Assembly: GCA_963713865.1 (NCBI GenBank)
Contig: OY970208.1
Span: forward strand, 2,432,001 to 2,496,000
DNA length: 64,000 nucleotides
From: an uncultured candidate division Zixibacteria bacterium
Lineage (GTDB): Bacteria > Zixibacteria > MSB-5A5 > RBG-16-43-9
Reading direction: 5' to 3'
This document shows, in pieces, positions 15,503 through 60,027 of this stretch (position 1 is the stretch's first letter; every line of letters starts with the position of its first letter). The notes under the pieces are model-generated. The model worked only from the letters and a program-made list of their open reading frames with translations. It did not search any database and was not told the origin of the DNA. The translations under genes and the position numbers were made by a program.

Positions 15503-15987
15503 CCTCTATCAATTTAAATATACGAACTTATATCTTAAAACCAAATAAAAAAAGCTGAAGCAGACAAATCAATAGAGTCATAGGCACAAGGCTCCTTACC
15601 TGCGCAACTCTTTTTCGTAGTTCGAGACATCAGCCTCGCTCATGCAACCGTTAATCCCACCTTGTCCAAAGGTGGGGTGATCTTCTCCATCTCCTTTCAG
15701 GAGAGGGTCAGGTTGAAAATCCCGTCAAGGGCGGGGTTGAGGTCTTTTTTCGTAGCGTTGTCACTCCTGTGACAACGAAGAAACTGGAAATCCCACTTTG
15801 CCCCCAAGGTAGGATGATTAAAAAAAGTAGAGTCGCATGGCGATGCGTCTCTACAAAAAACACCCGGAACAAAAATTTGGATAATCTTGACCTGAATACT
15901 AATATATCTACAGATTTCATCCCGGTTTAATTCTTGACATTTTCCCATCTTGAGACTATATTTGAAAAAATTTTAAGTGGCTTGATT

Positions 15988-22972: not shown

Positions 22973-23194
22973 AATACCTCCTTTGGCTTGAAAGTGTGGA
23001 TTCATTACTCTATTTTACTATGAATCTATGACGGGTGGGCGATTTTGTCAAGTGTATTTTGAAAGATTCTACTAAAAATTTTCCTACAAAATTAGAGGTA
23101 AAGAGGATAACAAGGGGGTAGTGCAGGTAGTTATTTTTTCTTGTAGGGGTGGGTTTGAAACCCACCCCTACAGATTTTTCAAGAAAGCCACAAA

Positions 23195-42866: not shown

Positions 42867-44947
42867 AGACGAAAAATCCGGAAAAAATCTTAATAGTGGA
42901 TAATGAAGTTAGAATGCGTGAGAGTCTCAAGACTCTTCTGCATAACTCCGGGTATGAGGTGGAAACGGTAGAAGATGGGGAGAAAGCCATTTGCCTTATG
43001 AATCAAAATAATTTTGAATTGATAATTGCGGATATAAATATACCAAAAGCCAGTGGGATAGAACTGTTAAGAAAAGCAAAGTCTAAAGATAAAGATGCAC
43101 TGGTCATCCTCATGACCGGTTATGGTTCATTGGATTCTGCCTTAGAGGCGATAAAAGGAGGGGCTTATCACTATTTCCTTAAACCGATCGAGTTTTCAGA
43201 CCTGGAGAGAGTTATAAAAAGCGGGCTGGAGAAAAGGAAAATAGATTTGGAAAGAAAAATCCTTTTAAAAGAGCTTAAAGAGAAAAACGTAGAACTCAAG
43301 ACCAAAGTAGAGGAACTGAATGCCCTATACCAGGCTGGTCGAGCCTTGAGTTCCAAAGATAGTTTAGATGTTCTGCTGGCCAATATCCTTTCGCTGGCGA
43401 CTAAAGTGGTTAAGGCTAAAACCGGCTCCATAATGTTGCTGGATCCTTCAAATAGATTTCTTTTTATAAAAACAGCCATCGGTTTGGAAAAAGAGATTAT
43501 AAAGAATACAAAATTAGAGCTGGGCAAAAGCATATCCGGCTATGTGGCGGAAAAAGGGCAACCGCTTTTAGTGGAAGATGTGGAAAAAGATCCCCGCTTC
43601 AAAAGGACCTCCAGGGAAAAGTATGAGACCAAATCCCTGATCTCGGTCCCCTTGAAAGCTAAAGACAAGATCTTGGGTGTCATAAATCTAAATAACAAAC
43701 TCAGTGGTGAGCCTTTTAATACTAAAGATCTTAAATTGATCTCCACCTTTGCGTCCCAGGCAGCTATAGCGATTGACGATGTATATAATTTTGAGCAGAG
43801 CAGGAAAAAAATTGCCCAGCTCTCGGTTTTGCACCAGATAGCTTCACGCCTTGCTACTTTAGACGATTTTGAGGTAATATCGAGATTCATTTTCATGCAG
43901 TTAAAAAAAATAATCCCTATAGACTTTTCCCTGTGGTTTGACTGGAATGAAAAAAATCAAATGATAAGGCTCAGCTCTATCCATGGGCTGGAGGATAGAA
44001 TTTCAGGGTTGGAGATCCCCATTCTGGATTTAGATATATTCGATCGGGAAAAGCTAAGCCAGAAGATTAAAAAAAGGTTAGAGGAGGAAAAGTTTATTAC
44101 TCCTCAGAGCATTGTTTATTCTTTCCCCATATTAACTGAAGGCACTTTCCTGGGAATATTCTGTGCCGGGAATGTAAAAGGCATAGTTTTATCTCAGGAG
44201 GAAGAAGAGATTATCTCCATAGTAGGCTCGCAAGCATCTTCAATCTATGAACGCCAGCGAGCGATCCTGAATGCAACCAGACTTCTGACTATGGGGAATA
44301 TGATGTCCGAGATAACCCACGATCTAAAAAAACCTCTGACCAATTTAAAAGGGGTAATTCAGCTTTTAAAAGAAGGGAAAAGCGAAGGGAAAAAGGAAGA
44401 GCTCCTGAGAATATTGGATCAGGAGATCAACCGAGCGAGTGAGCTGGTCAGGGAGTTAGTGGATTTCTCCAATCCAGGTAAATATCAGTCAGAGAGAAAA
44501 TCGATCCTTCCCATTTTAGAAAAGGCTTTGAAGCTGCTGGAGACGGACGTAAAAAAGAATCGGATTAGAGTGATTAAAGAATATCCGGATAATCTCCCTT
44601 TAATTTTCATTAACGAGAATGAGCTCTTGGAGGCATTTATAAACGTGCTTTTAAATGCGGTTGAGAGTATGCGCGAAGGGGGAGAACTGAAGTTAGAGCT
44701 GAGCAGGTATTATGATACGCAGAGAGAAGACAGTATTCTTCAGTTCTGTATTGCTGACCAGGGTACGGGGATTCCCAAAGAGAACTTGAATCGGATCTTC
44801 GAACGGTATTTTACTACCAAGGAAGGTGGTTCAGGTTTAGGATTATCCATAGTAGAGAGAATTATCAAAGCCCATAACGGATTTATCAAAGTGGAAAGCC
44901 AGTTAAATAAAGGAACAAAATTCTTTATATGTTTACCCTGTGGTTAG
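42863..44947 (+). CDS. REC-GAF-histidine kinase
   Basis: N-terminal REC; EITHDLKKPL, DQGTGI, GGSGLGL. Confidence 0.85.
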   Translation: MKTKNPEKILIVDNEVRMRESLKTLLHNSGYEVETVEDGEKAICLMNQNNFELIIADINIPKASGIELLRKAKSKDKDALVILMTGYGSLDSALEAIKGGAYHYFLKPIEFSDLERVIKSGLEKRKIDLERKILLKELKEKNVELKTKVEELNALYQAGRALSSKDSLDVLLANILSLATKVVKAKTGSIMLLDPSNRFLFIKTAIGLEKEIIKNTKLELGKSISGYVAEKGQPLLVEDVEKDPRFKRTSREKYETKSLISVPLKAKDKILGVINLNNKLSGEPFNTKDLKLISTFASQAAIAIDDVYNFEQSRKKIAQLSVLHQIASRLATLDDFEVISRFIFMQLKKIIPIDFSLWFDWNEKNQMIRLSSIHGLEDRISGLEIPILDLDIFDREKLSQKIKKRLEEEKFITPQSIVYSFPILTEGTFLGIFCAGNVKGIVLSQEEEEIISIVGSQASSIYERQRAILNATRLLTMGNMMSEITHDLKKPLTNLKGVIQLLKEGKSEGKKEELLRILDQEINRASELVRELVDFSNPGKYQSERKSILPILEKALKLLETDVKKNRIRVIKEYPDNLPLIFINENELLEAFINVLLNAVESMREGGELKLELSRYYDTQREDSILQFCIADQGTGIPKENLNRIFERYFTTKEGGSGLGLSIVERIIKAHNGFIKVESQLNKGTKFFICLPCG

Positions 44948-45057
44948 AGTCTTTTTTAGTTTTGCCGATAGGGTAGATAATATCCGAGAAACGAAGACTA
45001 CGAGCCAGCCCGCCCTTTGGGCGTCTGGCTTAGCCACCGTAGGAAAGGCTGGAGCTT

Positions 45058-46449
45058 ATGAGAGATAAAGTAAAGTTGTTAGTCATCGATGATGACCCAA
45101 GTGTCCCCTGGCTTTTAAGCGAAGGGTTAGGAGAGAATTATGAGATCGCTTCAGCCCGGGATGGAAAGGAGGGAATTAAGCTTATTTCTGGAAATAGACC
45201 GGATCTGGTATTGCTGGATATCAAAATGTCAGGGCTGAGTGGGTTTGAGGTTCTGGAGCAGATTAAAGAAATGGATCGCTTATTAGAGGTTATAATGCTT
45301 TCCGGACATAGCGAGACTAAAAATGTTGTGGAGTCGATTCGCCGTGGTGCCTCGGAATTTATAACTAAACCTTTTGATGTGAAAGAAGTTGAAATTCATA
45401 TTCAGAAGGTTCTTGAAAAAAATAAGCTGAAAAAAGAGTTAGACCTGCTGAAATCAGAACTTCAGGCAAAAACTCAGTACGATAAGCTAATCGGAGAATC
45501 TCCCAAAATGTTGCAGGTCAAAAGCTTAATAGAACAGGTAGCGGACTCGGAATTGACTGTGCTTATCAGGGGAGAAAGCGGCACCGGCAAGGAGATAGTT
45601 GCCCGGATGATCCATAACCTTTCCAGCCGTAGAAATGAAACCCTTATAAAGCAAAACTGTGCGGCTATACCCCGTGAGCTTTTGGAGGCTGAGCTATTCG
45701 GGTACGAGAAAGGGTCTTTTACCGGGGCGCATAAGACCAAACCAGGCAGGTTTGAGACCGCTCACAAGAGTACCATGTTTTTAGATGAGATCGGGGATCT
45801 GCCTTTAGAGCTTCAATCCAAGCTCCTCCAGGTCCTAGAGCAACATGAGTTCTTAAGAGTTGGTGGGATAAAAAATATTCAGGTGGACGTACGGATTGTC
45901 TGCGCTACAAATCGAGATCTGGAAAAAGCCTTAGAAAAACAGCTTATGCGAGATGATCTATATTACCGTTTAAATGAGATCACTATCCAGTTGCCTTCCT
46001 TAAGAGAGATCAAGGATGATATTCCTTTTCTGGTTGACCATTTTTTAAAGAAGTATAATCTTCAATATAAAAAAGAATATTCTCAACTTTCTCCGAAAAG
46101 TATGAATCTTCTCCAGGAATATGGCTGGCCTGGAAATGTGAGGCAGTTAGAGAATCTGATTAAACAGATCATTGTGCGAGGGAATGAGAATATCATACTG
46201 GAAACTATTAAGGCAACTATAATACCTTCTGAGACTACAGAAGAGCTCGGATCCCAAACTGAAGAAAAAGACTTTTCTCTTAAAAAAAGGGTAGCTAAAA
46301 CTATCGCCAGTCAGGAAAAGAGATTAATCCTGGAAGTTCTTAACAAGACTAACTGGAACCGGAGAAAAGCGGCAGAGCTTTTGGAAATAAGTTATCGCTC
46401 TTTGCTCTATAAGATCAAAGAATACCGGCTCAATGAAACTGAAAAATAG
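45058..46449 (+). CDS. Sigma54-dependent NtrC-family response regulator
   Basis: REC (LLDIKM), GESGTGKE, GSFTGA, FLDEIG, WPGNVRQL, Fis HTH. Confidence 0.92.
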   Translation: MRDKVKLLVIDDDPSVPWLLSEGLGENYEIASARDGKEGIKLISGNRPDLVLLDIKMSGLSGFEVLEQIKEMDRLLEVIMLSGHSETKNVVESIRRGASEFITKPFDVKEVEIHIQKVLEKNKLKKELDLLKSELQAKTQYDKLIGESPKMLQVKSLIEQVADSELTVLIRGESGTGKEIVARMIHNLSSRRNETLIKQNCAAIPRELLEAELFGYEKGSFTGAHKTKPGRFETAHKSTMFLDEIGDLPLELQSKLLQVLEQHEFLRVGGIKNIQVDVRIVCATNRDLEKALEKQLMRDDLYYRLNEITIQLPSLREIKDDIPFLVDHFLKKYNLQYKKEYSQLSPKSMNLLQEYGWPGNVRQLENLIKQIIVRGNENIILETIKATIIPSETTEELGSQTEEKDFSLKKRVAKTIASQEKRLILEVLNKTNWNRRKAAELLEISYRSLLYKIKEYRLNETEK

Positions 46450-46720
46450 GAAAGAAATAGCTTTTCTCTCTTATGTAAGTTAGTGCAAAGATTATGAACA
46501 GGGTTGCATATAAATTCCACTATTAAGGATGGAATTTGATTTACCACTCACCTGTCGATAAATAGTGTATGTAATTGTCCGAGAGAAAGAATTTTCACGC
46601 ATACCTACTACACCACGTAATCTTTTGTTAATCATCGACTTATATTCTGCGAGTTAAGTTATCAACATTCTAAAATTTATATTGCCAAAATAAAATGCCG
46701 CAGGTGAAGAGTAAGTTCAA

Positions 46721-46736
46721 TGGCATAAGTTTTGCT
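46721..46736 (+). promoter_or_regulatory. Sigma54 -24/-12 promoter
   Basis: TGGCATAAGTTTTGCT (GG-N10-GC), directly downstream of an enhancer-binding protein gene; IHF-like AATCATCGACTTA at about 46630. Confidence 0.7.
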
Positions 46737-46897
46737 TTTTTATATAGCGCTTAGTGATTAGAAGTTACCTCTTCGACGATGATTTGACAGATCATAAATT
46801 TTAGGCTCGGATGCCAGCTTCATTTTTAAGGAACACAATACAAAGAAAAATGATTGATAAAGTTTTAAATTTTCATATTTATAAAAGGAGTGTTTGA

Positions 46898-47401
46898 ATG
46901 AATAGCTTCAGGGATGAACTTGATCCAAAACCGGATCATGAAGAATGGGAAGAGACAGATCAGTTTTACAAGAGACACCGTAACTTCGGGCTAAGGGCAA
47001 AGCAGGAGTTAAAGCGAGCAGAGAGATACTGTGAATTTCTATCCCTTTTGGTGGTTGATTTAAGCAGTTTAGCAAAATTTGCTAAAGGTGGTGCTATGAA
47101 AAGTTACCAGCGAGTGGAAACGTTTTTTGAAGAGCTGGAAAGACTGGTTAAAGGAAGCGTGCGGGAGACGGATCTGGTCTCTGGGGTTGAAGACCAGAAA
47201 CTTCTCTTGCTCCTTTCCGAAACGCCTAAGGAAGGTGCTAAAAGTCTATCCAAAAGATTAGGTGAAAAGGTAAAATATTTAGTTTCCAGCACCCTGAAAA
47301 CTCCGCCTGGCTGGCAGGTGCCGATGAATATCCTTTCTTATCCGGACCGGAAAGGGAAAGACAAGTTCTTAGGTTTCATTCAGGAGTTGACCCAATCCTG
47401 A
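46898..47401 (+). CDS. Degenerate GGDEF-like protein
   Basis: QELKRAERY...LSLLVVD...VRETDLV...LLLSETPKEGA pattern with no GG(D/E)EF motif. Confidence 0.6.
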   Translation: MNSFRDELDPKPDHEEWEETDQFYKRHRNFGLRAKQELKRAERYCEFLSLLVVDLSSLAKFAKGGAMKSYQRVETFFEELERLVKGSVRETDLVSGVEDQKLLLLLSETPKEGAKSLSKRLGEKVKYLVSSTLKTPPGWQVPMNILSYPDRKGKDKFLGFIQELTQS

Positions 47402-47894
47402 TTTTTTTAATCACGCTTTGACAAGGATGTCATCTGCAAAAAAGAAAAGAATTAAAAAATAATTAAAATTAGTAAGAACCCAAAATTCAAGAGTTGATTT
47501 ATCTATTTGTTATTTCGTGTTTGGGAGATAAGTGTTTATTTCCCCTCCTTTTCAAGGGGAAGGTAAGGGAGTGGTTATATATGTAGCGTCAGGTTTTATG
47601 CCCGGCGTTCATTTTCCCATTGAAACGGAAAATACATAAATTAAATTCCTCTCCCTTTTGGAGATTGATAGAATCAGAGTATATCCCGCCCTTAGATGGG
47701 CTGATGCTAAAAAAGCAAGAGCAAGCTCTTGCACTCCACTCAAAAACAGGTAGAGACGCATGGCTATGCGTCTCTACGAGAATTTTGTCGGGTCAGGGGA
47801 CCCGTGTGCAACGGCTATATTGGAACTAGTATCCCCACCTTGCCCGCAAGGTGGGATTAAGTAGGGGCGTATTGCAATACGCCCCTACGAAAAG

Positions 47895-49271
47895 CTATTC
47901 AGGGAAGATTTTGCCGGGGTTGATTATTCCTTCAGGATCAAAGGCTTGTTTTATCTTTTTCATAAACTCTATTCCGGCTTTGCCCACTTCTTTTTCTAAG
48001 AATCTTGATTTGGTTGTGCCGATGCCGTGCTCTCCGGAAAGAGTTCCGCCTAACTTTAAAGTCAAATCGAACAATTTCTCTACTGCCTGTTCCACCCGGT
48101 GCATCTTGGCTTTATCTCTGGAGTCGGTCATAAAATTAACGTGCAGGTTTCCATCTCCGGCATGCCCGAAGGTATTTATCTGAACGGTGTAATCTTTTGC
48201 CAGCTTTTTGATTCCCCGGACTAACTCCGGAAGCTGACTGGGAGGAACGCAAACGTCTTCATTTACCTTGGTAGGAGCTAATCTTAATAAAGACGCAGAG
48301 ACAGACCGCCGGATTTTCCAGAGATTGTCTTTTTCCTCTTTGGTGTCTGCAAACCTTAAACTTTTAGCATTATTTCTCTGACAGATCTTTATGATATCTT
48401 CTGCTTCTTTATGAGCTTCTGCTTTTTCTCCGCTGGTTTCGATCAAAAGAACTGCTTCTGCTTTTTCGACCAGGTCAGTTTGGATATATTCCAAGACACA
48501 GGCTAAAGTGTCACCGTCGATGAACTCTAAAATAGATGGAGTGATCCCTGAAGCGGTAATATCCGCTACTACTTTTGCGGCGTCCTCCATCTGGTTGAAG
48601 CCGGCTAAGATCGTTTCCTCATAAGCTGGTTTGGTTAAAAGTCTCAAAGCTATTCTGGTTATCAAAGCCAGAGTCCCTTCGGAGCCATTGATAAGTCCGG
48701 AAAGGTCGTAGCCTGAGTCTCCATCCTGGTCCAGGATTCCTGTTCGGATTATCTCTCCATTATAAAGGATACATTCCAATCCCAGGACATAATTTTTGGT
48801 AACTCCATATTTCCTGCCTCTTAACCCTCCGGCACATTCGGCTACATTTCCTCCTAAAGTCGAGGTTTTCAAACTGGATGGGTCAGGCGGGTAGAAAAGC
48901 CCGATTTTTTCCATCTCATCTGCAAAGTTTTGAGTAACCACTCCTGGCTCAACTACCGCATACATCTTATCTTTATCTACAGATAAAATCTTGTTCATCT
49001 GCTCGAAACTGACCACGATTCCACCTTTGACTGGCAACGAGCCGCCAGTATAACCTGAGCCTGCACCCCGGCTGACGATTGAAATTTTATGGGTTGAAGC
49101 ATATTTCATTAGTTCTACCACCTGTTTAGTGTTCTGCGGAATGACCACTGCATCCGGCATAAAGCTGGTGTTGGTGGCATCGTAGGAATAGCAGAGTCTT
49201 TCCTCATAGGTGGAGAGGAGATTTTTAGGGCCGAAAATTCTTTTTAGGTCTTCAAATAGGTTTTCTTTCAT
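47895..49271 (-). CDS. glcD: GlcD-like FAD-linked 2-hydroxyacid oxidase
   Basis: YPPDPSS, GGNVAECAGG, GSEGTL, GHAGDGNLH, SGEHGIG, NPGK. Confidence 0.85.
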   Translation of the reverse strand: MKENLFEDLKRIFGPKNLLSTYEERLCYSYDATNTSFMPDAVVIPQNTKQVVELMKYASTHKISIVSRGAGSGYTGGSLPVKGGIVVSFEQMNKILSVDKDKMYAVVEPGVVTQNFADEMEKIGLFYPPDPSSLKTSTLGGNVAECAGGLRGRKYGVTKNYVLGLECILYNGEIIRTGILDQDGDSGYDLSGLINGSEGTLALITRIALRLLTKPAYEETILAGFNQMEDAAKVVADITASGITPSILEFIDGDTLACVLEYIQTDLVEKAEAVLLIETSGEKAEAHKEAEDIIKICQRNNAKSLRFADTKEEKDNLWKIRRSVSASLLRLAPTKVNEDVCVPPSQLPELVRGIKKLAKDYTVQINTFGHAGDGNLHVNFMTDSRDKAKMHRVEQAVEKLFDLTLKLGGTLSGEHGIGTTKSRFLEKEVGKAGIEFMKKIKQAFDPEGIINPGKIFPE

Positions 49272-49493
49272 AGCATCATCCTTCTTTGAAAATGGACTAA
49301 GCTTATCTTAATCTATACGAAATAAAATCGAAAATGAAAAGTGGAGTATAAAGCCATCAAGGTCTTGTCCACAGGATCCTGGTGAGGACTATAGCTTTAC
49401 TATTTTCTCTTGTTTGTGCGGGAATTCCCCAGAATGGGTCTTGACGACAATTCCCGAACCAACTTAAAACCAAAGGGCGAAGAATCTACAGAC

Positions 49494-49550
49494 GAAAGAG
49501 ATTTAGTCGGGCAGTTTTCAACAGCCCGACCTACTGCTACTACTGCTACT
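49494..49550. repeat. REP1 with duplicated CTACTG tail (left boundary of the cargo array)
   Basis: gaaagagatttagtcgggcagttttcaacagcccgacctactgctact; also at 50968-51015 and 52463-52510. Confidence 0.9.
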
Positions 49551-49586
49551 ATTTACAGAAAAAAAATTGCCAATTATTGACGAATA

Positions 49587-50627
49587 TTATAATAGAAAAA
49601 TATTATTTTCATGACATTTACTAATCATGTCATCAGGCCAAATACTGCTTTGGACTTCACCTATATGAGCCTTTCGAAGGTAAAACATGCAAAGCCGCGA
49701 TTGGCCGATACCACCTCCAATAGAAAGTGGCAATTCGTCATTGAGCAGACGCCTGTGGAAGTATAAATCTTTTCTTTTCATTTCACCCTTAATCTTCAGT
49801 TGTCGCAACAGCGTTTCAGCATTTACTCGTATTCCCATTGAAGAAAGCTCATAGGCACAGTTTAAAATCGGGTAGTAAATCAATATGTCTCCATTCAATC
49901 CCTTGTATTTACTACCAATGGGTGTGGACCAATCATCATAATCTGGGGCTCGACCATCATGCGGTTTGCCGTTTTTCAGGCTGCCGCCAATCCCGATGAT
50001 AAAAACAGCACCGTACTCGTTGCACACAGCTTTTTCCCTTTCATCGGGCGTCAGTTCTGGATATCTTTCCTCTAGTTCTTCACTATGTACAAAAGTAATG
50101 TCTTCCGGAAGGATGGGCTCGATGACGCTGTATTGATGGCAAATATATTTTTCTGTTCTTTTTATGACATCATATATTTTTCGGACAACACCTTGGAGAT
50201 AATTTAGGTTTCTTTCGTTTGGTGATATCACCTTTTCCCAATCCCACTGATCCACATATAGCGAATGCAGGTTGTCCAGACATTCATCTGATCGAATGGC
50301 ATTCATATCGGTGTACAGGCCTTCACCATGCTGAAAATTATAATCGGCCAGCATCATACGCTTCCATTTAGCTAAGGATTGCACGATCTCTGCATTAATA
50401 TCATCCAAAGCCTTTATCTTAAAAGAAACGGGTCTCTCTACACCGTTTAGGTCGTCATTGATACCTGTACCTGCTTTGACAAACAGAGGTGCCGTAACCC
50501 GTTGAAGGTTCAACTCAAATGATAAATTGATCTGGAAAAATTCTTTTATTAGCCGGACTGCTTTTTCCGTTTCTTTCAGATCCAACAATGGTTCATACTG
50601 TTCCGGGATAAATAAACTTGTTCTCAT
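49587..50627 (-). CDS. asnA: Aspartate--ammonia ligase
   Basis: NDDLNG, VQSLAKWKR, YVDQWDWE, HDGRAPDYDDW, IGGGIGQSR. Confidence 0.95.
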   Translation of the reverse strand: MRTSLFIPEQYEPLLDLKETEKAVRLIKEFFQINLSFELNLQRVTAPLFVKAGTGINDDLNGVERPVSFKIKALDDINAEIVQSLAKWKRMMLADYNFQHGEGLYTDMNAIRSDECLDNLHSLYVDQWDWEKVISPNERNLNYLQGVVRKIYDVIKRTEKYICHQYSVIEPILPEDITFVHSEELEERYPELTPDEREKAVCNEYGAVFIIGIGGSLKNGKPHDGRAPDYDDWSTPIGSKYKGLNGDILIYYPILNCAYELSSMGIRVNAETLLRQLKIKGEMKRKDLYFHRRLLNDELPLSIGGGIGQSRLCMFYLRKAHIGEVQSSIWPDDMISKCHENNIFLL

Positions 50628-50696
50628 AAAATACCTCCTTTCATATCGCTGTTAGCAAATTCAAATCTCTCGCTTATTAGATATAATCATCTGAAG

Positions 50697-51015
50697 GCCT
50701 AACATAGGTTTATCTGTACTAATAAAATTACAATTACGGCTATTTCTAACCATAAAAACCTCCTTACTAACTTGTAATTTTATTTAATCATTTACTTTAA
50801 TCGCAAGCAGTTAGATAATAAATATCTTATAAACTTACAATCTTTTATACAGCTAAAAGAAGTCGCATAAAATGAAAATTAAAATATATCTGTAAACAAG
50901 ATAAATTGCCTTGTTTAGATATGCAAGTAAAATTCTTCCGTCAGGTCAGGGGACCTGACGGTCACGTGAAAGAGATTTAGTCGGGCAGTTTTCCACAGCC
51001 CGACCTACTGCTACT
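50697..51015 (-). repeat. Repeated REP / promoter / attI-like block, copy 1
   Basis: Aligns with 52193-52510 and (without the REPs) 54365-54600; minus strand TTGCAT-17-TATCTT; ends GATAAACCTAT-GTTAGGC. Confidence 0.85.
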
Positions 51016-51087
51016 GACTGGAAGTACCCGAACCTTCGCTGGGGCGCGGTGGTAGCAACGTCGGCTGCACGCGCTTGTTAGCTCGCT
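51016..51087 (-). other. Truncated integron attC site (left half)
   Basis: AGCGAGCTAACAAGCGCGTGCAGCCGAC shortly after the glycosyltransferase stop; its reverse complement GTTAGCTCGCT matches the cassette start GTTAGCCCGCT at 10/11. Confidence 0.75.
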
Positions 51088-51108
51088 CTCCGTGATAAGT
51101 CAAAATGG

Positions 51109-51936
51109 CTACGATAGATTTGACTCCAAGATACTCAAGATGCCTCCATCAACGGTTTCGTCGAATTTGCGGGCAAACAAGTCTTGACTTGCCATCAAGA
51201 AATCAGCGTCTTTGGACGTGAAGTCTCTTGGACGTAACTTTATTGTTCCTAGCGGCACCCAGTCAATGGTCCTTTTATCGTCGTTCACAATAGTTGCCTT
51301 GTAGTTAGTATTCATTATTACCGTCTGAAAGAATCCTTCATCAGATATAAAGGTGTGCCGATAGAATCTCTTGAACCTTTTGACCTCAAAGCTGTAGCAC
51401 ATATATTCACAGAACTTCCTGCTCAAGATCATCCACTGATTTCCGATATAAGGAGTCACGCCTCGAAGATACGGTCGCTTGATAGGAGTGCGTAGTATCC
51501 TCTTGCTAAACTCGATACAGTAGTTCTCGATTCGAGATAGTGTATCAGGGCGTATCTCTCTCTGGTTAGCCACCTTGATGAAATCCCTTCCTATATTGAG
51601 GCTAAGAAAATCCTGGATGTGCGTCTGCGACTTTAGGGGGAAATCCTGTGCGCTAAGGTTTATGAAAAATTCCCATTCCGAGCTGATCTTCAATAACTCC
51701 TTGATGCCTCGCAATTCAGCATCTACCATGCTGTATCCCCCCCAAAGAATGCTTTGGCTTTTCAGCAAGGATGCGTTGGCAAAGCTTGACAAGAAATCTT
51801 GTATCTCCGTCTGTAATCCAACGCCTGATCTCTTATCCACATGAACCAGGTAATAGTTGGCGGGATGGTAAATTGCTCTAAAGAGCCTTTTGAACTGGTT
51901 AGGATACCGATGTACCAAGATGAGGTATGCGATCAT
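51109..51936 (-). CDS. GT14 / core-2 I-branching beta-1,6-GlcNAc-transferase family glycosyltransferase (cassette cargo)
   Basis: IAYLILVH, HVDKRS, WGGYSMV, INLSAQDFPL, DEGFFQT, FARKFD. Confidence 0.85.
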   Translation of the reverse strand: MIAYLILVHRYPNQFKRLFRAIYHPANYYLVHVDKRSGVGLQTEIQDFLSSFANASLLKSQSILWGGYSMVDAELRGIKELLKISSEWEFFINLSAQDFPLKSQTHIQDFLSLNIGRDFIKVANQREIRPDTLSRIENYCIEFSKRILRTPIKRPYLRGVTPYIGNQWMILSRKFCEYMCYSFEVKRFKRFYRHTFISDEGFFQTVIMNTNYKATIVNDDKRTIDWVPLGTIKLRPRDFTSKDADFLMASQDLFARKFDETVDGGILSILESNLS

Positions 51937-52192
51937 GTCCTTAACGATCTCCTCTAATCTGTATCTTCCTCAATAATTAGCGGGAAACTAACTCTGCACA
52001 GCCTCTTTCACTCGTGAAAACCGAGGCTACGGGCAACTTTCCCACAGTTATTGAGAATATACTATAACTTGTATCTCTCGAATTTCTATCATGGCAAGCC
52101 TTTCATGGTTAGGATATGGCTATGCCAGAATTATATTCCGAATACGACGGCTTGGCCGAAAAAAGGGGCGACACCTTTGCATACAACGAGCG

Positions 52193-52510
52193 GGCTAACA
52201 TAGGTTTATCTGTACTAATAAAACTACAATTACAGATATTTCTAACCCATAGAAACTTCCTTGCTAACTTACAATTTTTTTTAATCATTCCCTTAATTCG
52301 CAACGGAAAGATAATAGATATCTAATAAACTTACCATCTTTTATACAGTTAAAAAAAGCCGCATAAAATGAAAATTAAAATATATCTGCAAGCAAGATAA
52401 CTTGCCTTGTTTAGATATGCAAGTGAAATTTTTCGTCAGGGCAGGGGACCTGACGGGCACGTGAAAGAGATTTAGCCGGGCAGTTTTCCACAGTCCGACC
52501 TACTGCTACT
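52193..52510 (-). repeat. Repeated REP / promoter / attI-like block, copy 2
   Basis: As copy 1 with scattered substitutions; ends GATAAACCTAT-GTTAGCC. Confidence 0.85.
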
Positions 52511-52514
52511 TGGC

Positions 52515-52688
52515 TTATGCGCTCCGGTTGGCGAACGATCGACCAGCGTTTACACCGGAACCAAACCCTGTTGCAAAGAAACCGATTTTTGCTGCCAGCG
52601 AGACATCTCTCCAAATCACAATTGAGAAGACAACCGCAAAAACAAAAAACATGATTGATATCCCCATAAGATTTTTGTTTGACCTCAT
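52515..52688 (-). CDS. Small membrane protein (57 aa, cargo)
   Basis: AAGGAG RBS; MRSNKNLMGISIMFFVFAVVFSIVIWRDVSLAAKIGFFATGFGSG... Confidence 0.6.
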   Translation of the reverse strand: MRSNKNLMGISIMFFVFAVVFSIVIWRDVSLAAKIGFFATGFGSGVNAGRSFANRSA

Positions 52689-52746
52689 CCTAATATCTCC
52701 TTCGTGAATTTTAAAATTACAGCCATATTCACACTCAAACCCGGCT

Positions 52747-52800
52747 ACCCAACACAGGTTAATCTGTACCAATAAAATTACAATTACGGCTATTTCCAAC
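52747..52800 (-). repeat. Partial attI-like copy bounded by two GTT cores
   Basis: GTTGGAAATAGCCGTAATTGTAATTTTATTGGTACAGATTAACCTGT-GTTGGGT. Confidence 0.8.
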
Positions 52801-52810
52801 CAAACTATGA

Positions 52811-54328
52811 TTAGCTTTCCTGTTCGGTAGCCTTTGCCCTTTCCTCATAAGACATATCTGCCAGGCGTTTAACTTCGTTCACATCAAGGCCCAATCCTTC
52901 CGCTACGCGACGGCCATAATCCTGGTCCGCTTTATAAAACAAAGCTGTCTGGCGAAATTGAATGCGTTTTTTCGCCTTGCCCAGGTGGTCCACTATGTTG
53001 CCGATCAGGTGATCCCGGTCCTCATCCTGCATAACTTTGCGATAGAGGTTTCCAGGTTGAACAAAGTCATCATTAGGAAAATTAAAGGGGAAACGCCCCG
53101 CCTGGCCTGAAAGTTCAAAAGGAGGTTCGCCTGTTGCGGGATCCGGCCCGGGGCCGTCAAAACTGTTGGGCCAGTAATTGGGTCCACCCCCTCCGTTGGC
53201 GTCAACACGCATGAAACCGTCACGCTGGTAATTGTTTTCCAAAGCGCATTTAGGCGCATTGACTGGAATAAGATGATAATTAGGACCCAGTCTATGAAGG
53301 TGCGTATCATGGTAAGAAAAAACCCTTGCTTGCAGCATCTTATCCGGTGAAACGGCGATTCCCGGGACTACGTTTCCCGGGCAAAAAGCCGCCTGCTCTA
53401 CTTCTGCAAAATAGTTGACGGGGTTACGGTTTAAAACCAGCTTACCAATTTTGACGGGTGGGACTTCTTTATGCGGCCACACTTTAGTGATGTCAAAGAT
53501 ATCCCAGGGGAAATCCTTGGCTTTCTCTGGTGTTAGAATCTGCATCTCCAGCGTCCAGGAAGGATAGTCACCTCGTTCGATAGCATTATACAGATCACGG
53601 GTGGCGTGATCCGGATCTTCCCCGCAGAGCCTCTTCGATTCCTGGCGGGTCAGATTCTTGATACCCTGATCTGTCTTGAAATGGTATTGTACCCAGAAAT
53701 ACTCCCCCTTATCATTGTACCATTTGAAGGTGTGGCTACTATAACCGTTCATATGCCGGTAAGCGGCCGGTGTTCCCCTGTCGGAGAAAAGAATGGTAAC
53801 TTGATGAACGGATTCGGGAGTAAGAGACAGAAAGTCCCAAAACATGTCCGGATCAGGCAGATTGGTTGCGGGGCGCCTTTTCTGGGTGTGGATGAAGTCG
53901 GGGAACTTAAGTGGATCCCGGATAAAAAATACCGGCGTGTTGTTGCCCACGAGGTCATAATTGCCTTCTTCAGTGTAGAATTTCAATGCAAAGCCGCGTG
54001 GGTCCCGTGCAGCATCGGCTGAGCCCCTTTCACCACCAACGGTGGAAAAGCGAGCGAAGACTTCCGTGCGCTTTCCCACTTTTGAAAGAAACTTGGCTTT
54101 GGTGTACCTGGTCACATCGGCAGTAACTTCGAAATAACCAAATGCTCCAGCTCCTTTTGCATGCACGACACGTTCGGGAATTCGCTCACGGTCGAAGTGG
54201 GCTAATTTTTCCAGCAAATGGGCATCCTGCATGAGTACAGGTCCACGTTCACCGGCTGTCATGCTGTTCTGGTCGTCAGCCACAGGGATTCCAAAAGCTG
54301 TGGTTAGTCTTTTTTTCTCTTCTTTCAT
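52811..54328 (-). CDS. katA: Monofunctional heme catalase (small subunit)
   Basis: [40 protein letters not shown]. Confidence 0.93.
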
Positions 54329-54364
54329 GGCTTACCTCCTTCCTGTAATTATGAATCCATAGCT

Positions 54365-54600
54365 ATATAACATAGGTTTATCTGTACTAATAAAATTACA
54401 ATTACGGCTATTTCTGACCATAAAAACCTTTTTGCTAACTTATAATTTTATTTAATCATTTACTTTATTTACAAGCAGTAAGATAATAAATTTCTAATAA
54501 ACTTACCCTCTTTTATACGGCTAAAAGAAACCGCATAAAATGAAAATTAAAATAAATCTGAAAAAAAGATAACTTTCCTTTTTCAGGTATGCAAGTAAAA
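54365..54600 (-). repeat. Repeated promoter / attI-like block, copy 3
   Basis: Aligns with 50701-50930; ends GATAAACCTAT-GTTATAT. Confidence 0.85.
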
Positions 54601-54714
54601 CTTTTCCCTCCCTAAATTAAGCAGCCACCCTTGATGTGTTGTCAAGTGTCACTACCTGACAGCCATAAGTACTTGACGTCAGGAGGTAACTCCTGACGCC
54701 ACAATTCAACAATA

Positions 54715-55224
54715 TTATTTTTGCCTTTTTCCTTCCGCATCGAACCATTCACTGTCTGGACATACCGGCTCAGCCTGGTTTCTCCTCACATTATCTCCCT
54801 GGATGGAAGCCATTATGAAATTCTCCGGAGGAACTGGTGAACCGAAAAGACGGCGCAACATAGCCAGCTGTCCCGCGTGTGACATAGCATCTGAGAAGGG
54901 TCCCTGAAGCATCCTTTCAGGAGTAGTGCCCTGGAATGGCGTTCCCTGTTCCAGATGTGTCCTGAGACTATCAAGTATCCTGTGAAACTCCTCGATTTCC
55001 AGATTAAAGTTGTCTTTGATCTCAGGTCTGAACTTTCCTCCAACAAAAAACGTCCTGGCGTATCCCAGAACATTGGTCATATGAAAAACTATTTGATGAG
55101 GCGTCCTGACACCAGGAGCGGCACGGAAACTCGCAAATTCAGGCGGAGCATCCCTGAGGGCTTTTTGCGCTCGATAAGCTATTGCCCCAAGAAAGTGGCG
55201 AAGTATCATTCTTTTATCATCCAT
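54715..55224 (-). CDS. DinB-like hypothetical protein
   Basis: RTPHQIVFHM...DAMSHAGQLAMLRR His pattern. Confidence 0.6.
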   Translation of the reverse strand: MDDKRMILRHFLGAIAYRAQKALRDAPPEFASFRAAPGVRTPHQIVFHMTNVLGYARTFFVGGKFRPEIKDNFNLEIEEFHRILDSLRTHLEQGTPFQGTTPERMLQGPFSDAMSHAGQLAMLRRLFGSPVPPENFIMASIQGDNVRRNQAEPVCPDSEWFDAEGKRQK

Positions 55225-55557
55225 ACAAGCTCACCTTTTGGCAGTATAATAAAAGTTTCTCTAATCTTGCAAGAGAAATTCCTATGTCTGGTCAAGGGAA
55301 ATGATTGGCATGTGTACAAAACAATTTCCCTCCCTCGATGGGAGGGAATAAAAGGGAGGGTGTTAACATTATTTTATTACCCTCTCCCCCGCCTCTGGCG
55401 GGATTTTCAACCTATCCCTCTCCCATTAAGGGAGAGGGAACTAAAAAAAATATCCCACCCCGCTTCTGGCGGGATGGGATACCAAAATCGCAAGGAGATC
55501 CACTTGGATGTCCCTGCAATTATTTGGACAGGACACTGTCCTGTCCCTACAAAAAGA

Positions 55558-56652
55558 TTATTTTATATCAAACTTAATATTTATCTCCTGAGACAACTTC
55601 TCCAGCTGGCCATAGACTTTGTCCTGCAAGGGCAACCCGTTTTTCTTATAATAATCCCATTTCTCAAATTCCTTTTCTCCGTGGATATAAATTCTTTTTT
55701 CTCCTTCGGCTTTATTGGCGCTTTTCAGCTCGTTGATCATCCTGTCCATCATTTTTTTGAATGTATCCAGTGGAATGAAATTATCTATCTTTATCGCTCC
55801 AAAGAAATGCCCTACATTGGAGAATTTCTGGGAAGGGTCTCTTTTGGAATCGACATAAGGTCCGTATGCTGCTCCGGAGAGTATTCCGGAGAAGATATCT
55901 ACCAGGACCGAAAGCCCATATCCTTTATGCCCGCTGAACTCCTCGCCGGCTCCGCCTAAAGGAAGAACTCCGCCTCCTGCGGCTTTGGTCATATTGTCCA
56001 GAACCTTTTTGGTATCAGTTGTGGGAACGCCCTTTTCGTCCACTGCCCAGCCCAAGGGAAGAGGTTTTCCCAGACGGTCCAGGACCTCTAATTTTCCCCT
56101 CGGAACCACAGTGGTTGCCATATCCAGTACAAAAGGTCTTTCTTTTGCGGTGGGGAAGACCACGCTGATCGGATTGGTGCCGATGATCATATCCCGGCTG
56201 AAAGTGGGAACACCCAATGGAGCTGAGTTGGTCATAGAAATCCCGCAGAGATTTTCTTTTATCGCCATCATCGAATAATATCCGGCAATTCCAAAATGAT
56301 TGGAATTTCCAACGGTAACCAGGCCTACTCCTGCTTTTTTGGCTTTATCGATAGCCAATTTCATTCCAAAAAGCCCGGCTGGCTGGCCTAAACCGTTTTC
56401 TCCGCTCACTGCTGCAGTGGTGGGAGTTTCTTTTATGATCTTGGGCTTGACTTTGGGTAGTATCTTCCCGTTTTTGATCCCGTTGACGTATCTCATCAGG
56501 CGGGCAACTCCGTGTGAGGGGATAGCCCTGAGGTCTGCCTGGACCAGATTATCTGCAGTTACCTCTGCATCTTCTTTGGTTACTCCCAAGTCGATGAATA
56601 CCTGAGTACAAAAGCTGCTCAGCTTTTTATCATTGACCAGTATGTCTGCCAT
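55558..56652 (-). CDS. Ldh_2 family malate/L-lactate dehydrogenase
   Basis: SHGVARL, SNHFGIAGYY, GTNPIS, DMATT, HKGYGL. Confidence 0.88.
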   Translation of the reverse strand: MADILVNDKKLSSFCTQVFIDLGVTKEDAEVTADNLVQADLRAIPSHGVARLMRYVNGIKNGKILPKVKPKIIKETPTTAAVSGENGLGQPAGLFGMKLAIDKAKKAGVGLVTVGNSNHFGIAGYYSMMAIKENLCGISMTNSAPLGVPTFSRDMIIGTNPISVVFPTAKERPFVLDMATTVVPRGKLEVLDRLGKPLPLGWAVDEKGVPTTDTKKVLDNMTKAAGGGVLPLGGAGEEFSGHKGYGLSVLVDIFSGILSGAAYGPYVDSKRDPSQKFSNVGHFFGAIKIDNFIPLDTFKKMMDRMINELKSANKAEGEKRIYIHGEKEFEKWDYYKKNGLPLQDKVYGQLEKLSQEINIKFDIK

Positions 56653-56692
56653 TCTTACTCCTTTTTTAAAAGTTTATTTCTTCCTGAACGGA

Positions 56693-57961
56693 TCAATTCT
56701 GGACCATACAAGGATAAATCAATCCTCCCTGTGGCATAATGTAAGCTTTGAAATCCTCCCCGTGCCTGGTTTTAATCTTATCCAGTGCATCTTCCAGGTT
56801 TTCCGCATATTTGAAGAGCCTTTTCTCTAAGAAATCTTTTTTCATAGAGGAGATAACGTAAACCTGATAATTCTTAAGAGTTTTGGAGTTAATCACTGCG
56901 GTGTGACCACCAACCACAATGTCTTTTTCCCTGGTATTCAAAAGCTCATCACAACAGGAAGCATTTGCCAGCCATTTATCAAAGGTATCTGAGCCGATCC
57001 CCTCCCTGGATTCGGTAAGCATCACTACGGTTCCTCCCTCTTTTACCACCTCTTTGGCGTTGTTCATTGTCTTCATAGTTTGATAAAGATTGACGTCCTT
57101 GGGATAACCTCCGGCACTGGCTATAACCGCATCGGCTAAGCAATCGATTTTTACTTTATAAAGCTGATTGCAGGCAGCCACCCCGGCCAGGAAAGCTTCT
57201 TTTAAATCTCCAGCTACTATCTTTACTATTTCCTTTTTATCGTTTATCACCACATTTAGCAGAAAATCTACTCCCGCCCTACGGGCGGCTTCTTCCATTT
57301 CCAGATTTATCGGGTTATCATTAAGCCTGGCAATCCCCACTCCCGGCCTGCATACCATAGCATGGTTTGCCCGGATGGTTTCTCTACCCGCTACTCCAGG
57401 CAGAATCCCTTTTCTACCGCCGGAATACCCTCCGAAATAATGAGTGGTGATAAGTCCGGTCATCACCACTAAGTCAGATTCCTTGATCAGTTTATTTACC
57501 AAAAGCTCGTTCCCGGTAGAAAGATTACCGAAAGATACAAGATCTTTGTCACATTCATGGCTTATCAATTCATAGTTATCAACTATCTCATCCCCGAAAT
57601 TATCCCGATTTTCCTTGTCAGTGTGGGGTCGGTGCGCTCCGGTTCCCACTAAAAAACTGATATCCTCATTTTTTATTCCACCAGCATTTAATTCCTCAAG
57701 AATGGGGATAAGAAAATTATACCCTGGTCGTTTGTAAGGGGTGCCACGGGTGAAATCGCTTACCACAATAACTGCTGTCTTCTTCCTTTTGGCTAATTCG
57801 CTTAATCTTTTACTTTTGATTGGATTCTGTAATGCCTGGATAGCTGACTGGTTAACGTCTGAAAGACCCGGAACTTTTTCCAATTCTAAGACTTTAAGAA
57901 GGTTTTTATCTTGAAGATTTAACTCTTTATAACCATCGCCGTATTTTAGGTTTATTTTCAT
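56693..57961 (-). CDS. larA: Nickel-pincer lactate racemase family protein
   Basis: SDFTR, GTGAHR, HYFGGYSGGRKGILPG, GGYPKDVNLYQ. Confidence 0.85.
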   Translation of the reverse strand: MKINLKYGDGYKELNLQDKNLLKVLELEKVPGLSDVNQSAIQALQNPIKSKRLSELAKRKKTAVIVVSDFTRGTPYKRPGYNFLIPILEELNAGGIKNEDISFLVGTGAHRPHTDKENRDNFGDEIVDNYELISHECDKDLVSFGNLSTGNELLVNKLIKESDLVVMTGLITTHYFGGYSGGRKGILPGVAGRETIRANHAMVCRPGVGIARLNDNPINLEMEEAARRAGVDFLLNVVINDKKEIVKIVAGDLKEAFLAGVAACNQLYKVKIDCLADAVIASAGGYPKDVNLYQTMKTMNNAKEVVKEGGTVVMLTESREGIGSDTFDKWLANASCCDELLNTREKDIVVGGHTAVINSKTLKNYQVYVISSMKKDFLEKRLFKYAENLEDALDKIKTRHGEDFKAYIMPQGGLIYPCMVQN

Positions 57962-58250
57962 AAATTTTCCTCGTTTCTACTATTAATACGCAGATGCGAA
58001 ATAAAATATATCAAAGCCGTTTTCAGGAAGCAAGGGTTTTTTGTGAAATTTTTAACAAAGTTATTTATCCTGCAGTGCGAGACGATGAATGGTAAATGAC
58101 GGATATCGGATGGTTATTCTTTTATAGGGGAGGGGATTGTTGAGCTTTGCAAAATCGCACTTTGCGGTGGTTCCTTCCCGTTTTTTCGGGCTACCCTACA
58201 TATTTCCCTAATCCGGTAAACCCACGTTGCCCTAAAGTGGGTTAATTCTT

Positions 58251-58478
58251 TTATCTCCTGAAAAATATATTAAACAAAATAAAAAGCAGGGAAAGAATCA
58301 GGCTGATCAAAACAGAGGAAGCTAAGGGAAAGTAAAACGAAAAATTTTTCTTTTGAATATAAACATCTCCGGGAAGTTTTCCGAAGAATGGCAATTTTCC
58401 AAAAAGGAGCATAGCGCCACCTAAAAGGACTAAAATTACACCAAATAGAATTATTAACTTGCTCAAATTAGTAATCAT
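58251..58478 (-). CDS. DUF2905 membrane protein
   Basis: GKLPGDVYI...FYFPLASS. Confidence 0.8.
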   Translation of the reverse strand: MITNLSKLIILFGVILVLLGGAMLLFGKLPFFGKLPGDVYIQKKNFSFYFPLASSVLISLILSLLFILFNIFFRR

Positions 58479-58557
58479 TTCCCTTTGAACTCTTAAACTT
58501 TCGAACTTTTAAACATTTTCAAAAGGCCGCATCCCCAAAGGAATTTACCAGCATAGG

Positions 58558-59304
58558 CTATTTTTTGCCAATTACTCTATAATTTAACCCCAGAGACATG
58601 GCGTTCTCACTAATCCCTTCGCTTGAGCCTAATCTTCCCGCTAAATCCAGATGCCAGTTCCTGAATAATTTGAAACTGGTCTTTGCTACCAGTCCCGCAG
58701 CATCATATGGTCCACCACTTAATCCTATCCACCAAGTAGAAGATTTAATTCCAAATCCCATACCCATATTAGCATAACCACCGCCAGAATAGAGCGGAAC
58801 GTTTTCCAATACACTCACAGAAAAATATAACTTTTTAGTGCCGAGACGGATGTGCCCGCTGGGAAAGGTCTCTCCCCCTTTCTCATCTTCAGAGACATCT
58901 AAGGTCTTCTGTGCAAAAAAAGGACCCGTCCCAATCCCAAACCCTTTCCACTCCAGAGAAAAATCAGGATTAAAATAGAAATTCGTCCTATCTTTAAATA
59001 GATAGGCATCATAATCATCAAGATATACTCTGGATACAGGTGTTTTATCTGAGATATAACCGCTTCTCAAGCCGATTTTGACCGGTGATTTAAACTTATG
59101 GTCAACCGAGAAACCAAAGTCATTAAATGGGATTTTATCTTTGGTAAGCACCTGCCCCTCACAACCGCGAGTAACATAGGCATAAGATCCTAAACCACCA
59201 GCGATTTTCAAATTAGTTTCAGTGCTGTCCTTCCCATCATTCTCTACCCCTATCAATAAAGGTAGGACAGCAAAGAAGCTTAATATTCTTGTGATTTTTC
59301 TCAT
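58558..59304 (-). CDS. Exported hypothetical protein, possibly an outer-membrane beta-barrel
   Basis: Signal-like N-terminus; alternating beta-strand pattern; ends SLGLNYR. Confidence 0.5.
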   Translation of the reverse strand: MRKITRILSFFAVLPLLIGVENDGKDSTETNLKIAGGLGSYAYVTRGCEGQVLTKDKIPFNDFGFSVDHKFKSPVKIGLRSGYISDKTPVSRVYLDDYDAYLFKDRTNFYFNPDFSLEWKGFGIGTGPFFAQKTLDVSEDEKGGETFPSGHIRLGTKKLYFSVSVLENVPLYSGGGYANMGMGFGIKSSTWWIGLSGGPYDAAGLVAKTSFKLFRNWHLDLAGRLGSSEGISENAMSLGLNYRVIGKK

Positions 59305-59457
59305 CTAAACCTCATTTTTTATAGAGTTGCCGAGCAAGGTTGAAGCCTTGCTCTATCTCATCTGGCACGGTAATTCCAATTCCCGTATCAACAAAGAACC
59401 AACCAAAGATTCTTCGCCCCTACGGGGACTCAGAATGACATTATAAAAGCAACCCAA

Positions 59458-60027
59458 TCATTTCCCCTTTGAACTTTTGAACCCTTGAACCTTTGAACCT
59501 TTTTTCTCATATCTTTCCTTCTCACTGAAAATACACCCGCAATACTTCTGACGATATAAATTCAATTCCTTAGCCATATTTTTACCTTCGTAATACCCTG
59601 GTCTTAAATCCTCATAGAAGAATTTTATATCATATTTTTTGGCCAGCTCTTCTCCAATTTCATTTATCAGCTCATGCTTTTGAGTAGGGCTGACTAAAAG
59701 GGTGGTTGAAAAAGCCTCAAACCCCTTTTCTTTAGCTACCCGGGCAGTTCTCTCTAATCTTAACTGGTAACAGAATCGACAACGGTCTTCTAAATGAGGC
59801 ATAACTGCCTGAAGATATTCTACCAGATCATAAGAATCCTCATAGATTATTGGAAAAACTTTAGCCCATTCTAAATATCCTGCCGCCTCTAACCTGTTCT
59901 GATATTCAGTGTAGGGGTGAATATTAGGATTATACCAGAAACCAGTAAGTTTGTGACCTTTTTCAGTTAATCTTTTTAGAGGATAGGTCAGGCAGGGACC
60001 ACAGCAGACATGAATCAGAATCTCCAT
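59458..60027 (-). CDS. queH: Epoxyqueuosine reductase
   Basis: IHVCCGPC, YNPNIHP, RCRFCY, YRQKYCGCIFS. Confidence 0.88.
   Translation of the reverse strand: MEILIHVCCGPCLTYPLKRLTEKGHKLTGFWYNPNIHPYTEYQNRLEAAGYLEWAKVFPIIYEDSYDLVEYLQAVMPHLEDRCRFCYQLRLERTARVAKEKGFEAFSTTLLVSPTQKHELINEIGEELAKKYDIKFFYEDLRPGYYEGKNMAKELNLYRQKYCGCIFSEKERYEKKGSKVQGFKSSKGK

Follow-up and report, generated by a model that had tools for sequence, protein, structure and literature searches.

Positions 52198 to 51016 on the minus strand of the window (the whole 64,000-nt stretch analysed here) very probably constitute an integron gene cassette that encodes a GT14-type glycosyltransferase and has moved between phyla. We hold with considerable confidence that the surrounding region is best explained as a fossil array in which this cassette, with a halved attC, sits among multiplied copies of an orphan attI. 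Comparison with homologous loci shows the 5' end of the unit to be a canonical cassette boundary, G/TTAGCC, and its 3' end to be the left half of its own attC. Along the minus strand, the array reads attI-catalase-ΔattI (52 nt)-small ORF-attI-glycosyltransferase-ΔattC-attI-AsnA (Table 1); the catalase and AsnA genes stand without an attC and are large for cassettes.

Table 1. Features of the array and the basis on which each was assigned.
Feature	Coordinates	Strand	Basis
attI-region copy C, before catalase (54328-52811)	54371..54560	-	homology to L242, promoter scan, Pfam
Pc-like promoter TTGTAA-18-TAAAAT, copy C	54474-54445	-	promoter scan
Partial attI stub, last ~52 nt, directly after catalase	52751..52802	-	repeat comparison
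57-aa membrane-like ORF after attI stub	52688-52515	-	
attI-region copy B, before glycosyltransferase	52199..52389	-	84% identity to L242
Putative cassette (TTAGCCC..., leader, ORF, truncated attC)	51016..52198	-	homology with cassettes of other phyla
5' leader of cassette, 262 nt	51937..52198	-	conserved in L079
Predicted glycosyltransferase ORF, 275 aa, PF02485 Branch, GT14 type	51109..51936	-	Pfam
attC remnant (R'' 51087-51077; L''-type arm GTGCAGCCGAC 51070-51060; ~45 nt variable loop)	51018..51087	-	
Module a, GTAG-tagged hairpin (REP-like), in place of attC right arm	50968..51015	-	
Module a, other copies	52510-52463, 49545-49494		
Module b, CGTC-type hairpin repeat	50923..50971	-	dispersed through genome
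attI-region copy A, before AsnA unit (ORF 50627-49587, Pfam AsnA)	50703..50892	-	88% identity to L242
Pc-like promoter TTGCGA-18-TAAAAT, copy A	50806-50777	-	promoter scan

The cargo ORF is a predicted GT14 / Core-2/I-branching glycosyltransferase, passing the cut-off of the Pfam Branch profile clearly (E = 1.3e-42; 146.5 bits against 23.4; profile positions 1-227 of 250). Relatives on RefSeq plasmids, 54-57% identical to the 275-aa protein, are annotated as beta-1,6-N-acetylglucosaminyltransferase, and a search of the ORF against NCBIfam returned no match. The leader that precedes it is unusually long for a cassette and contains a terminator-like hairpin at 52047-52027; it had no match in Rfam (52198-51937). 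Its internal deletions differ among homologues: positions 52061-51964 are absent from L084 and L081, and the leader is also internally deleted in L078 and L087.

The glycosyltransferase unit is flanked by a 316-nt repeat, which lies at 52510-52197 before it and at 51015-50701 after it. A third copy, before the catalase gene (54610-54368), lacks the first 73 nt, and the first 48 nt of the repeat stand alone after AsnA. The attI region itself is a 192-nt repeat, and whereas a classical integron has one attI, three copies and a 52-nt stub of this one lie within 4 kb. Copy B retains the final codons of a lost intI together with their stop, plus a Pc-like stretch and an ATG behind a Shine-Dalgarno site; its core reads ...ACAGATAAACCTATG, the crossover G is at 52199, and similarity to every other copy stops at GTT.

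We found the exact 21-base core of this repeat in 92 metagenome stretches. Similarity among the copies that were fetched ends at GTT, at a single nucleotide position, in 80 of 80 cases. The 61 distinct sequences that follow GTT have a purine at +1 in 59 cases, at +2 in 54 and at +3 in 52, and a pyrimidine at +4 in 54; 37 fit GTTRRRY exactly. Cassettes are joined here at the G/TT of a GTTRRRY core, as they are at an attI. Two of the 80 fetched contigs, L242 and L187, carry an integron-integrase remnant on the cassette strand, with its stop ~187 nt before GTT, and these score 128.8 and 104.6 bits against TIGR02249 (XerD, 42 and 68 bits). Both are broken: the L242 gene has an in-frame stop and is missing its N-terminal part, and that of L187 is interrupted by a transposase-like frame. 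This frame (936-1391 of L187) runs without a shift into the last ~70 integrase residues, and the gene looks to have been cut by an insertion element.

From ~5 nt before the intI stop to GTT, each of the three copies in the window is 84-88% identical to L242, and each retains the last intI codons and the stop; the coding end ...GIRSPADII-stop is likewise kept in 10 of 22 aligned metagenome contigs. GTTAG cores that recur and a pair of ~17-nt direct repeats can be seen in the same alignment, features that an integrase might bind. These alignments show the repeat abutting the cassette to be a homologue of the intI-proximal attI region, with intI pointing toward the cassettes. The wider suggestion of the initial annotation, that the site is an attI, gains support from the GTT junction statistics and from contiguity with the intI remnant, with the provisos that the window holds no integrase gene and that the site is repeated, unlike a classical attI. 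Frame-shifting indels, and copies with no ATG, led us to reject a leader-peptide reading of the repeat.

Further junctions of the same kind occur in a second integrase-less array, which lies between mnmE and mnmG in the G000 genome (668315-672262; locus L154, minus strand) and comprises three attI-type repeats along with four or more complete attCs. Its cargo includes a SieB-like protein, a 2'-5' RNA ligase-family protein and several proteins without a Pfam family. In this array the repeat is followed by the SieB-like cassette, whose attC begins GTCCAAC and matches the cassette start GTTGGAC, and the attCs of later cassettes, 77-136 nt long, also fold. Cassettes with a complete attC whose R'' matches the first bases after the G of the repeat stand behind it at genome position 672262 and in G013, G032 and G003; the match in G013 is exact (9/9). 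We used such 9-mer matches only where an attC hairpin followed, and the plain count of R''-type 9-mers within 3.4 kb of repeat copies is uninformative (9 of 27, with 9 of 27 in the reversed control as well). The array also contains an ORF-less unit that starts TTAGAGC... right after an attC and ends in an attI-type repeat (L154 6017-5850 and 4536-4305, thus twice in G000; also L058 near 2600, in G003). This unit looks like an ORF-less ΔattI-type cassette, and it may have a promoter aboard.

We consider it unlikely that the repeat is merely a shared promoter and 5' leader under selection, with the array assembled by homologous recombination and the cassette inserted at a chance secondary GTT. 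The repeat does always stand before a co-oriented gene, at a median of 37.5 nt from a Shine-Dalgarno-like site, and has a sigma-70-like match inside it; most repeat-bearing genomes are without IntI, and the differing unit order of G000 and G001 is explicable by recombination between 190-316-nt repeats. A promoter of this kind would sit poorly, however, with similarity that stops at one nucleotide in every fetched copy, with the GTTRRRY pattern of the 61 downstream sequences, and with the contiguity of the repeat and the 3' end of an intI remnant. It would also leave aside the several independent attC-bearing cassettes that begin exactly at GTT. Further, conservation in the repeat takes the form of a continuous block of ~32 nt, not of two hexamers with a loose spacer.

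Because the repeat stands between co-oriented genes, much as an attC does, and in the mnmE-mnmG array follows a boundary, TTAGAGC..., right after true attCs, it might instead be taken for an unusually long conserved attC of the kind seen in Vibrio repeats, in an ordinary array whose units end in the repeat. We rejected this very improbable reading on the basis of folding. Neither strand yields the R''/R' closure of an attC: there is no R''/L'' arm and no hairpin closing on GTT. In addition, the 52-nt stub after the catalase gene has no inverted partner, and the homology of the repeat is to sequence lying downstream of intI.

At its 5' boundary, the glycosyltransferase unit begins with GTTAGCCCGCT (52199-52189, minus strand), as the initial annotation had stated. 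It had also placed, about 20 bp past the stop, a box complementary to this start at 10 of 11 positions, and we confirmed both the match and the location: the box AGCGAGCTAAC begins exactly 21 nt past the stop of the 275-aa ORF, equals the reverse complement of GTTAGCCCGCT at 10 of 11 positions, and is directly followed by AAGCGCGTGCAGCCGAC (51076-51060). The R'' of the unit is therefore complementary to its own first bases, as in a cassette. The same annotation described a site cut off about 60 bp in, with no right arm; the right arm is indeed absent, and the distance is really ~70, because AGTAGCAGTAG begins at 51015, 72 nt from the box start. When the 93-nt tail was shuffled 100,000 times, 103 shuffles gave a reverse-complement match of at least 10 of 11 positions; among 1,376 93-nt tiles from both strands of the window, 2 did so, the real site possibly being one of them.

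The attC remnant is without L' and R'. It folds weakly (-8.8 kcal/mol), with R'' unpaired and no closing stem, whereas complete homologous sites close on an R''/R' stem. Because only R'', L'' and part of the loop are left, the window unit is a cassette remnant and not a mobilisable cassette. The site agrees with the long attC found in L081 and L083 as far as 51018, where the sequences part. The identical truncation is found in G001, of the same genus, and in G008, from another genus of the family, and the cut would therefore represent one old event. Searched with Rfam in E-value mode, positions 44000-60000 gave four matches, all under the gathering score, and none in 51016-52199.

The place of the missing arm is taken by module a (GTAGGTCGGGC-11 nt-GCCCGAC), which is probably a REP-like repeat. 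The genome holds four copies of it, three within this array, and relatives hold more. Module b comes next; within the 316-nt repeat, positions 44-94 have matches at ~20 further sites of the genome, and at many in relatives. Eight Y1_Tnp matches in the genome are over the cut-off. The 57-aa ORF upstream ends in a CGCCAAC box (52540-52511), ~16 nt before a GTAG-tagged hairpin. This box may be a second attC, cut even shorter; its match to the unit's own start, GTTGGGT, is weak (5/7).

In a scan of one genome per species, relatives of the glycosyltransferase are encoded in 147 of 191 candidate stretches. The best relatives show 84-96% amino acid identity and 88-92% nucleotide identity to the window cassette, and the top ones come from MAGs labelled Zixibacteria, Ignavibacteriota, Dadabacteria, Chloroflexota, Desulfobaccales, Pyrinomonadaceae, Anaerolineae and others. 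Nucleotide homology with these homologues spans 52199 to 51051-51018. In L079, L078, L084, L081, L087 and L107 it opens exactly at the G of GTTAGCC (52199), with unrelated sequence upstream that, in L084 and L081, includes typical attC right arms. The homologues thus share a G/TTRRRY 5' boundary behind differing upstream sites, as cassettes do.

At the 3' end, the R'' box (...GAGCGGGCTAAC) is kept in 16 of the 29 loci examined; it directly follows the stop in 15 of these and lies 1.6 kb further on in L081. A complete attC follows the gene in L077, L083, L087 and L107, and the sites fold with R''/R' paired at -15.8 (L077), -24.4 (L083, 129 nt) and -37.5 kcal/mol (L087). In L107 (69% amino acid identity), the gene lies between attCs, and an IntI with a score of 398.4 bits (cut-off, 265) stands 3 kb away. 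This is the one locus among 80 searched with an IntI within its 4-kb flanks, and a position next to an integron integrase is accordingly seen for a homologue only. Our custom attC finder is insensitive, missing sites visible by eye in L079 and L083, and was counted as positive evidence only. The central claim made for this unit at the outset, that it is a true cassette with an amputated attC, is supported by homologues that have an identical 5' boundary and that occur as cassettes with complete attCs.

Part of the stretch is also contained in 20 public runs from 19 studies. When we aligned contigs from four runs, the match of contigs from X3 and X17 ended at 52199, and an X17 contig extended beyond 51018 with an L081-type continuation; run X17 is an RNA library, which, used as contigs, shows sequence presence and not transcription. 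It is scarcely credible that the 11-nt inverted match stems from transposon or MITE ends, or from chance. A 10/11 match does turn up in ~1 per 1,000 shuffles, but complete attC hairpins in homologues start with this box, which is conserved among them, both boundaries are cassette boundaries in other phyla, and neither a transposase nor a target duplication was seen.

A search of the 2.72-Mb genome with TIGR02249 gave no match over the cut-off, in the window or elsewhere, and the four Phage_integrase matches in the genome lie ~850 kb away or further. With no intact IntI in the genome, we therefore regard the array as a probable fossil. An ORF at 54955-55959 (+), considered as a possible integrase, has no Pfam family. 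Across the phylum, the repeat core (at most three mismatches) occurs in 10 of 285 genomes, all ten of them from the taxonomic order to which the window belongs, and in none with the reversed-pattern control. IntI is over the cut-off in 7 of the 285 and in one of the ten repeat carriers, where it is partial. Beside the intact IntI genes of the phylum, we found neither the repeat nor, by direct-repeat search, attC arrays. All integrase genes seen beside the repeat are broken. Remnants of another integron integrase occur in G000, at genome positions 753931-754134 (+) and 795376-795625 (-); they share 79% identity with the last 68 residues of the IntI in G014, which is intact, and what lies upstream of 795376-795625 is similar to the sequence upstream of intI in G014 and G031.

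The slot that holds the array, between an Ldh_2-type gene (55558-56652) and a FAD-oxidase gene (47895-49271), is hypervariable in the family. Its gene set differs in each of five family genomes (window 47895-56652; L057, L068, L069, L070), and the glycosyltransferase unit is at a different place in G001. The sigma-70-like match, a consensus match only, is conserved across the repeat alignment; copies A and C have Pc-like promoters, copy B falls under the scan threshold, and the Shine-Dalgarno site with its ATG lies past the promoter match in the attI region. Transcription of each array gene would probably start at the promoter in the preceding attI copy. The attI1 site has an embedded short ORF (ORF-11) that aids cassette translation. 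The repeat resembles it in having a Shine-Dalgarno site and an ATG, and in copies A and C the frame crosses the junction and stops just before the cargo start. Unlike ORF-11, however, this frame lacks conservation: copy B has it broken, and neither the stub nor the copy at genome position 669853 contains the ATG.

We propose the following history. In an ancestor of the family, an integron integrase would have joined the attC of the cassette to the GTT of an attI-type site. The L'/R' arm would have gone at a later time, through a GTAG-tagged hairpin repeat or through a deletion with its end in that repeat, and the cassette, therefore unable to fold a recombination substrate, would have become fixed. 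The integrase gene would have been lost, leaving only its last codons before each attI copy, and the attI region, with its Pc-like promoter, Shine-Dalgarno site and short ORF, would have multiplied to three copies and the 52-nt stub. Units would now move only via recombination between attI copies, or with an integrase acting in trans. More tentatively, the module of last intI codons plus attI could be a portable landing pad and promoter that is multiplying within the chromosomes of one Zixibacteria order, building integrase-less arrays of true cassettes as well as full-size metabolic genes (catalase, AsnA) that rare in-trans integrases would serve only now and then. The broken state of every integrase gene seen beside the repeat would fit a site that persists where its integrase does not; we regard this reading as possible but doubtful.

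On this history, the array of this sediment bacterium would be a clear, datable fossil of integron activity in the candidate phylum Zixibacteria. Judged on titles and abstracts, our literature search turned up incidental mentions only and no described integron in Zixibacteria. The occurrence of one cassette at ~90% nucleotide identity across MAGs labelled as many phyla would represent cross-phylum spread. The window would also record the loss of the machinery, with the integrase gone, the attC halved by a REP-like repeat and the attI multiplied, while the genes remain with a putative promoter. For integron biology, this raises the question of whether an attI can outlive and outnumber its own integrase.

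CALINs, clusters of attC sites without an integrase, are remains of integron arrays; the term is used in PMC7923331. The window array is likewise such a remnant but, unlike CALINs, has a single half attC and several attI copies; the mnmE-mnmG array fits the term better. Fused cassettes whose attC is partly or wholly lost are described in the available text of PMC4670013. Like these, the window unit has one ORF, a G/TTRRRY 5' boundary and a partly lost 3' attC, so that it is fixed in the array; unlike them as described in that text, it has a GTAG-tagged hairpin where the arm was lost, instead of being fused to the next ORF, and its host is a Zixibacterium without an integrase.

The available sections of PMC12901181 report ΔattI-type cassettes in integrons of classes 1 and 2, arranged as attI-ORF-ΔattI or attI-ORF-attI, in which 14-244 nt of attI replace the attC. 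Similarly, in the window the 52-nt attI stub comes after catalase, and whole attI regions come after the glycosyltransferase and after the small ORF. In contrast to the cassettes in those sections, the attI sequence of the window is unrelated, chromosomal and integrase-less, and its copies carry the last intI codons. These cassettes are, as far as the same sections describe them, a precedent for the repeated putative attI in the window. Treponema-type chromosomal integrons, in the excerpted text of PMC3607928, have an atypical layout with intI transcribed toward attI, and that text gives the integron only one attI. The intI remnants of L242 and L187 are similarly co-oriented with the cassettes, with attI downstream of the stop; unlike the Treponema type as presented there, they belong to another phylum, and every intI seen beside the window-type attI is broken.

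Other repeats are found in the window. Hairpin repeats of 40 nt, GC-rich and placed behind genes, occur at 15820, 25808, 36249, 41245, 47743 and 47854. A 606-aa ORF at 21185-23005 contains internal repeats with a period of ~150-170 nt, and a 78-nt repeat pair (21198-21377 / 36332-36511) is common to two large ORFs 15 kb apart.
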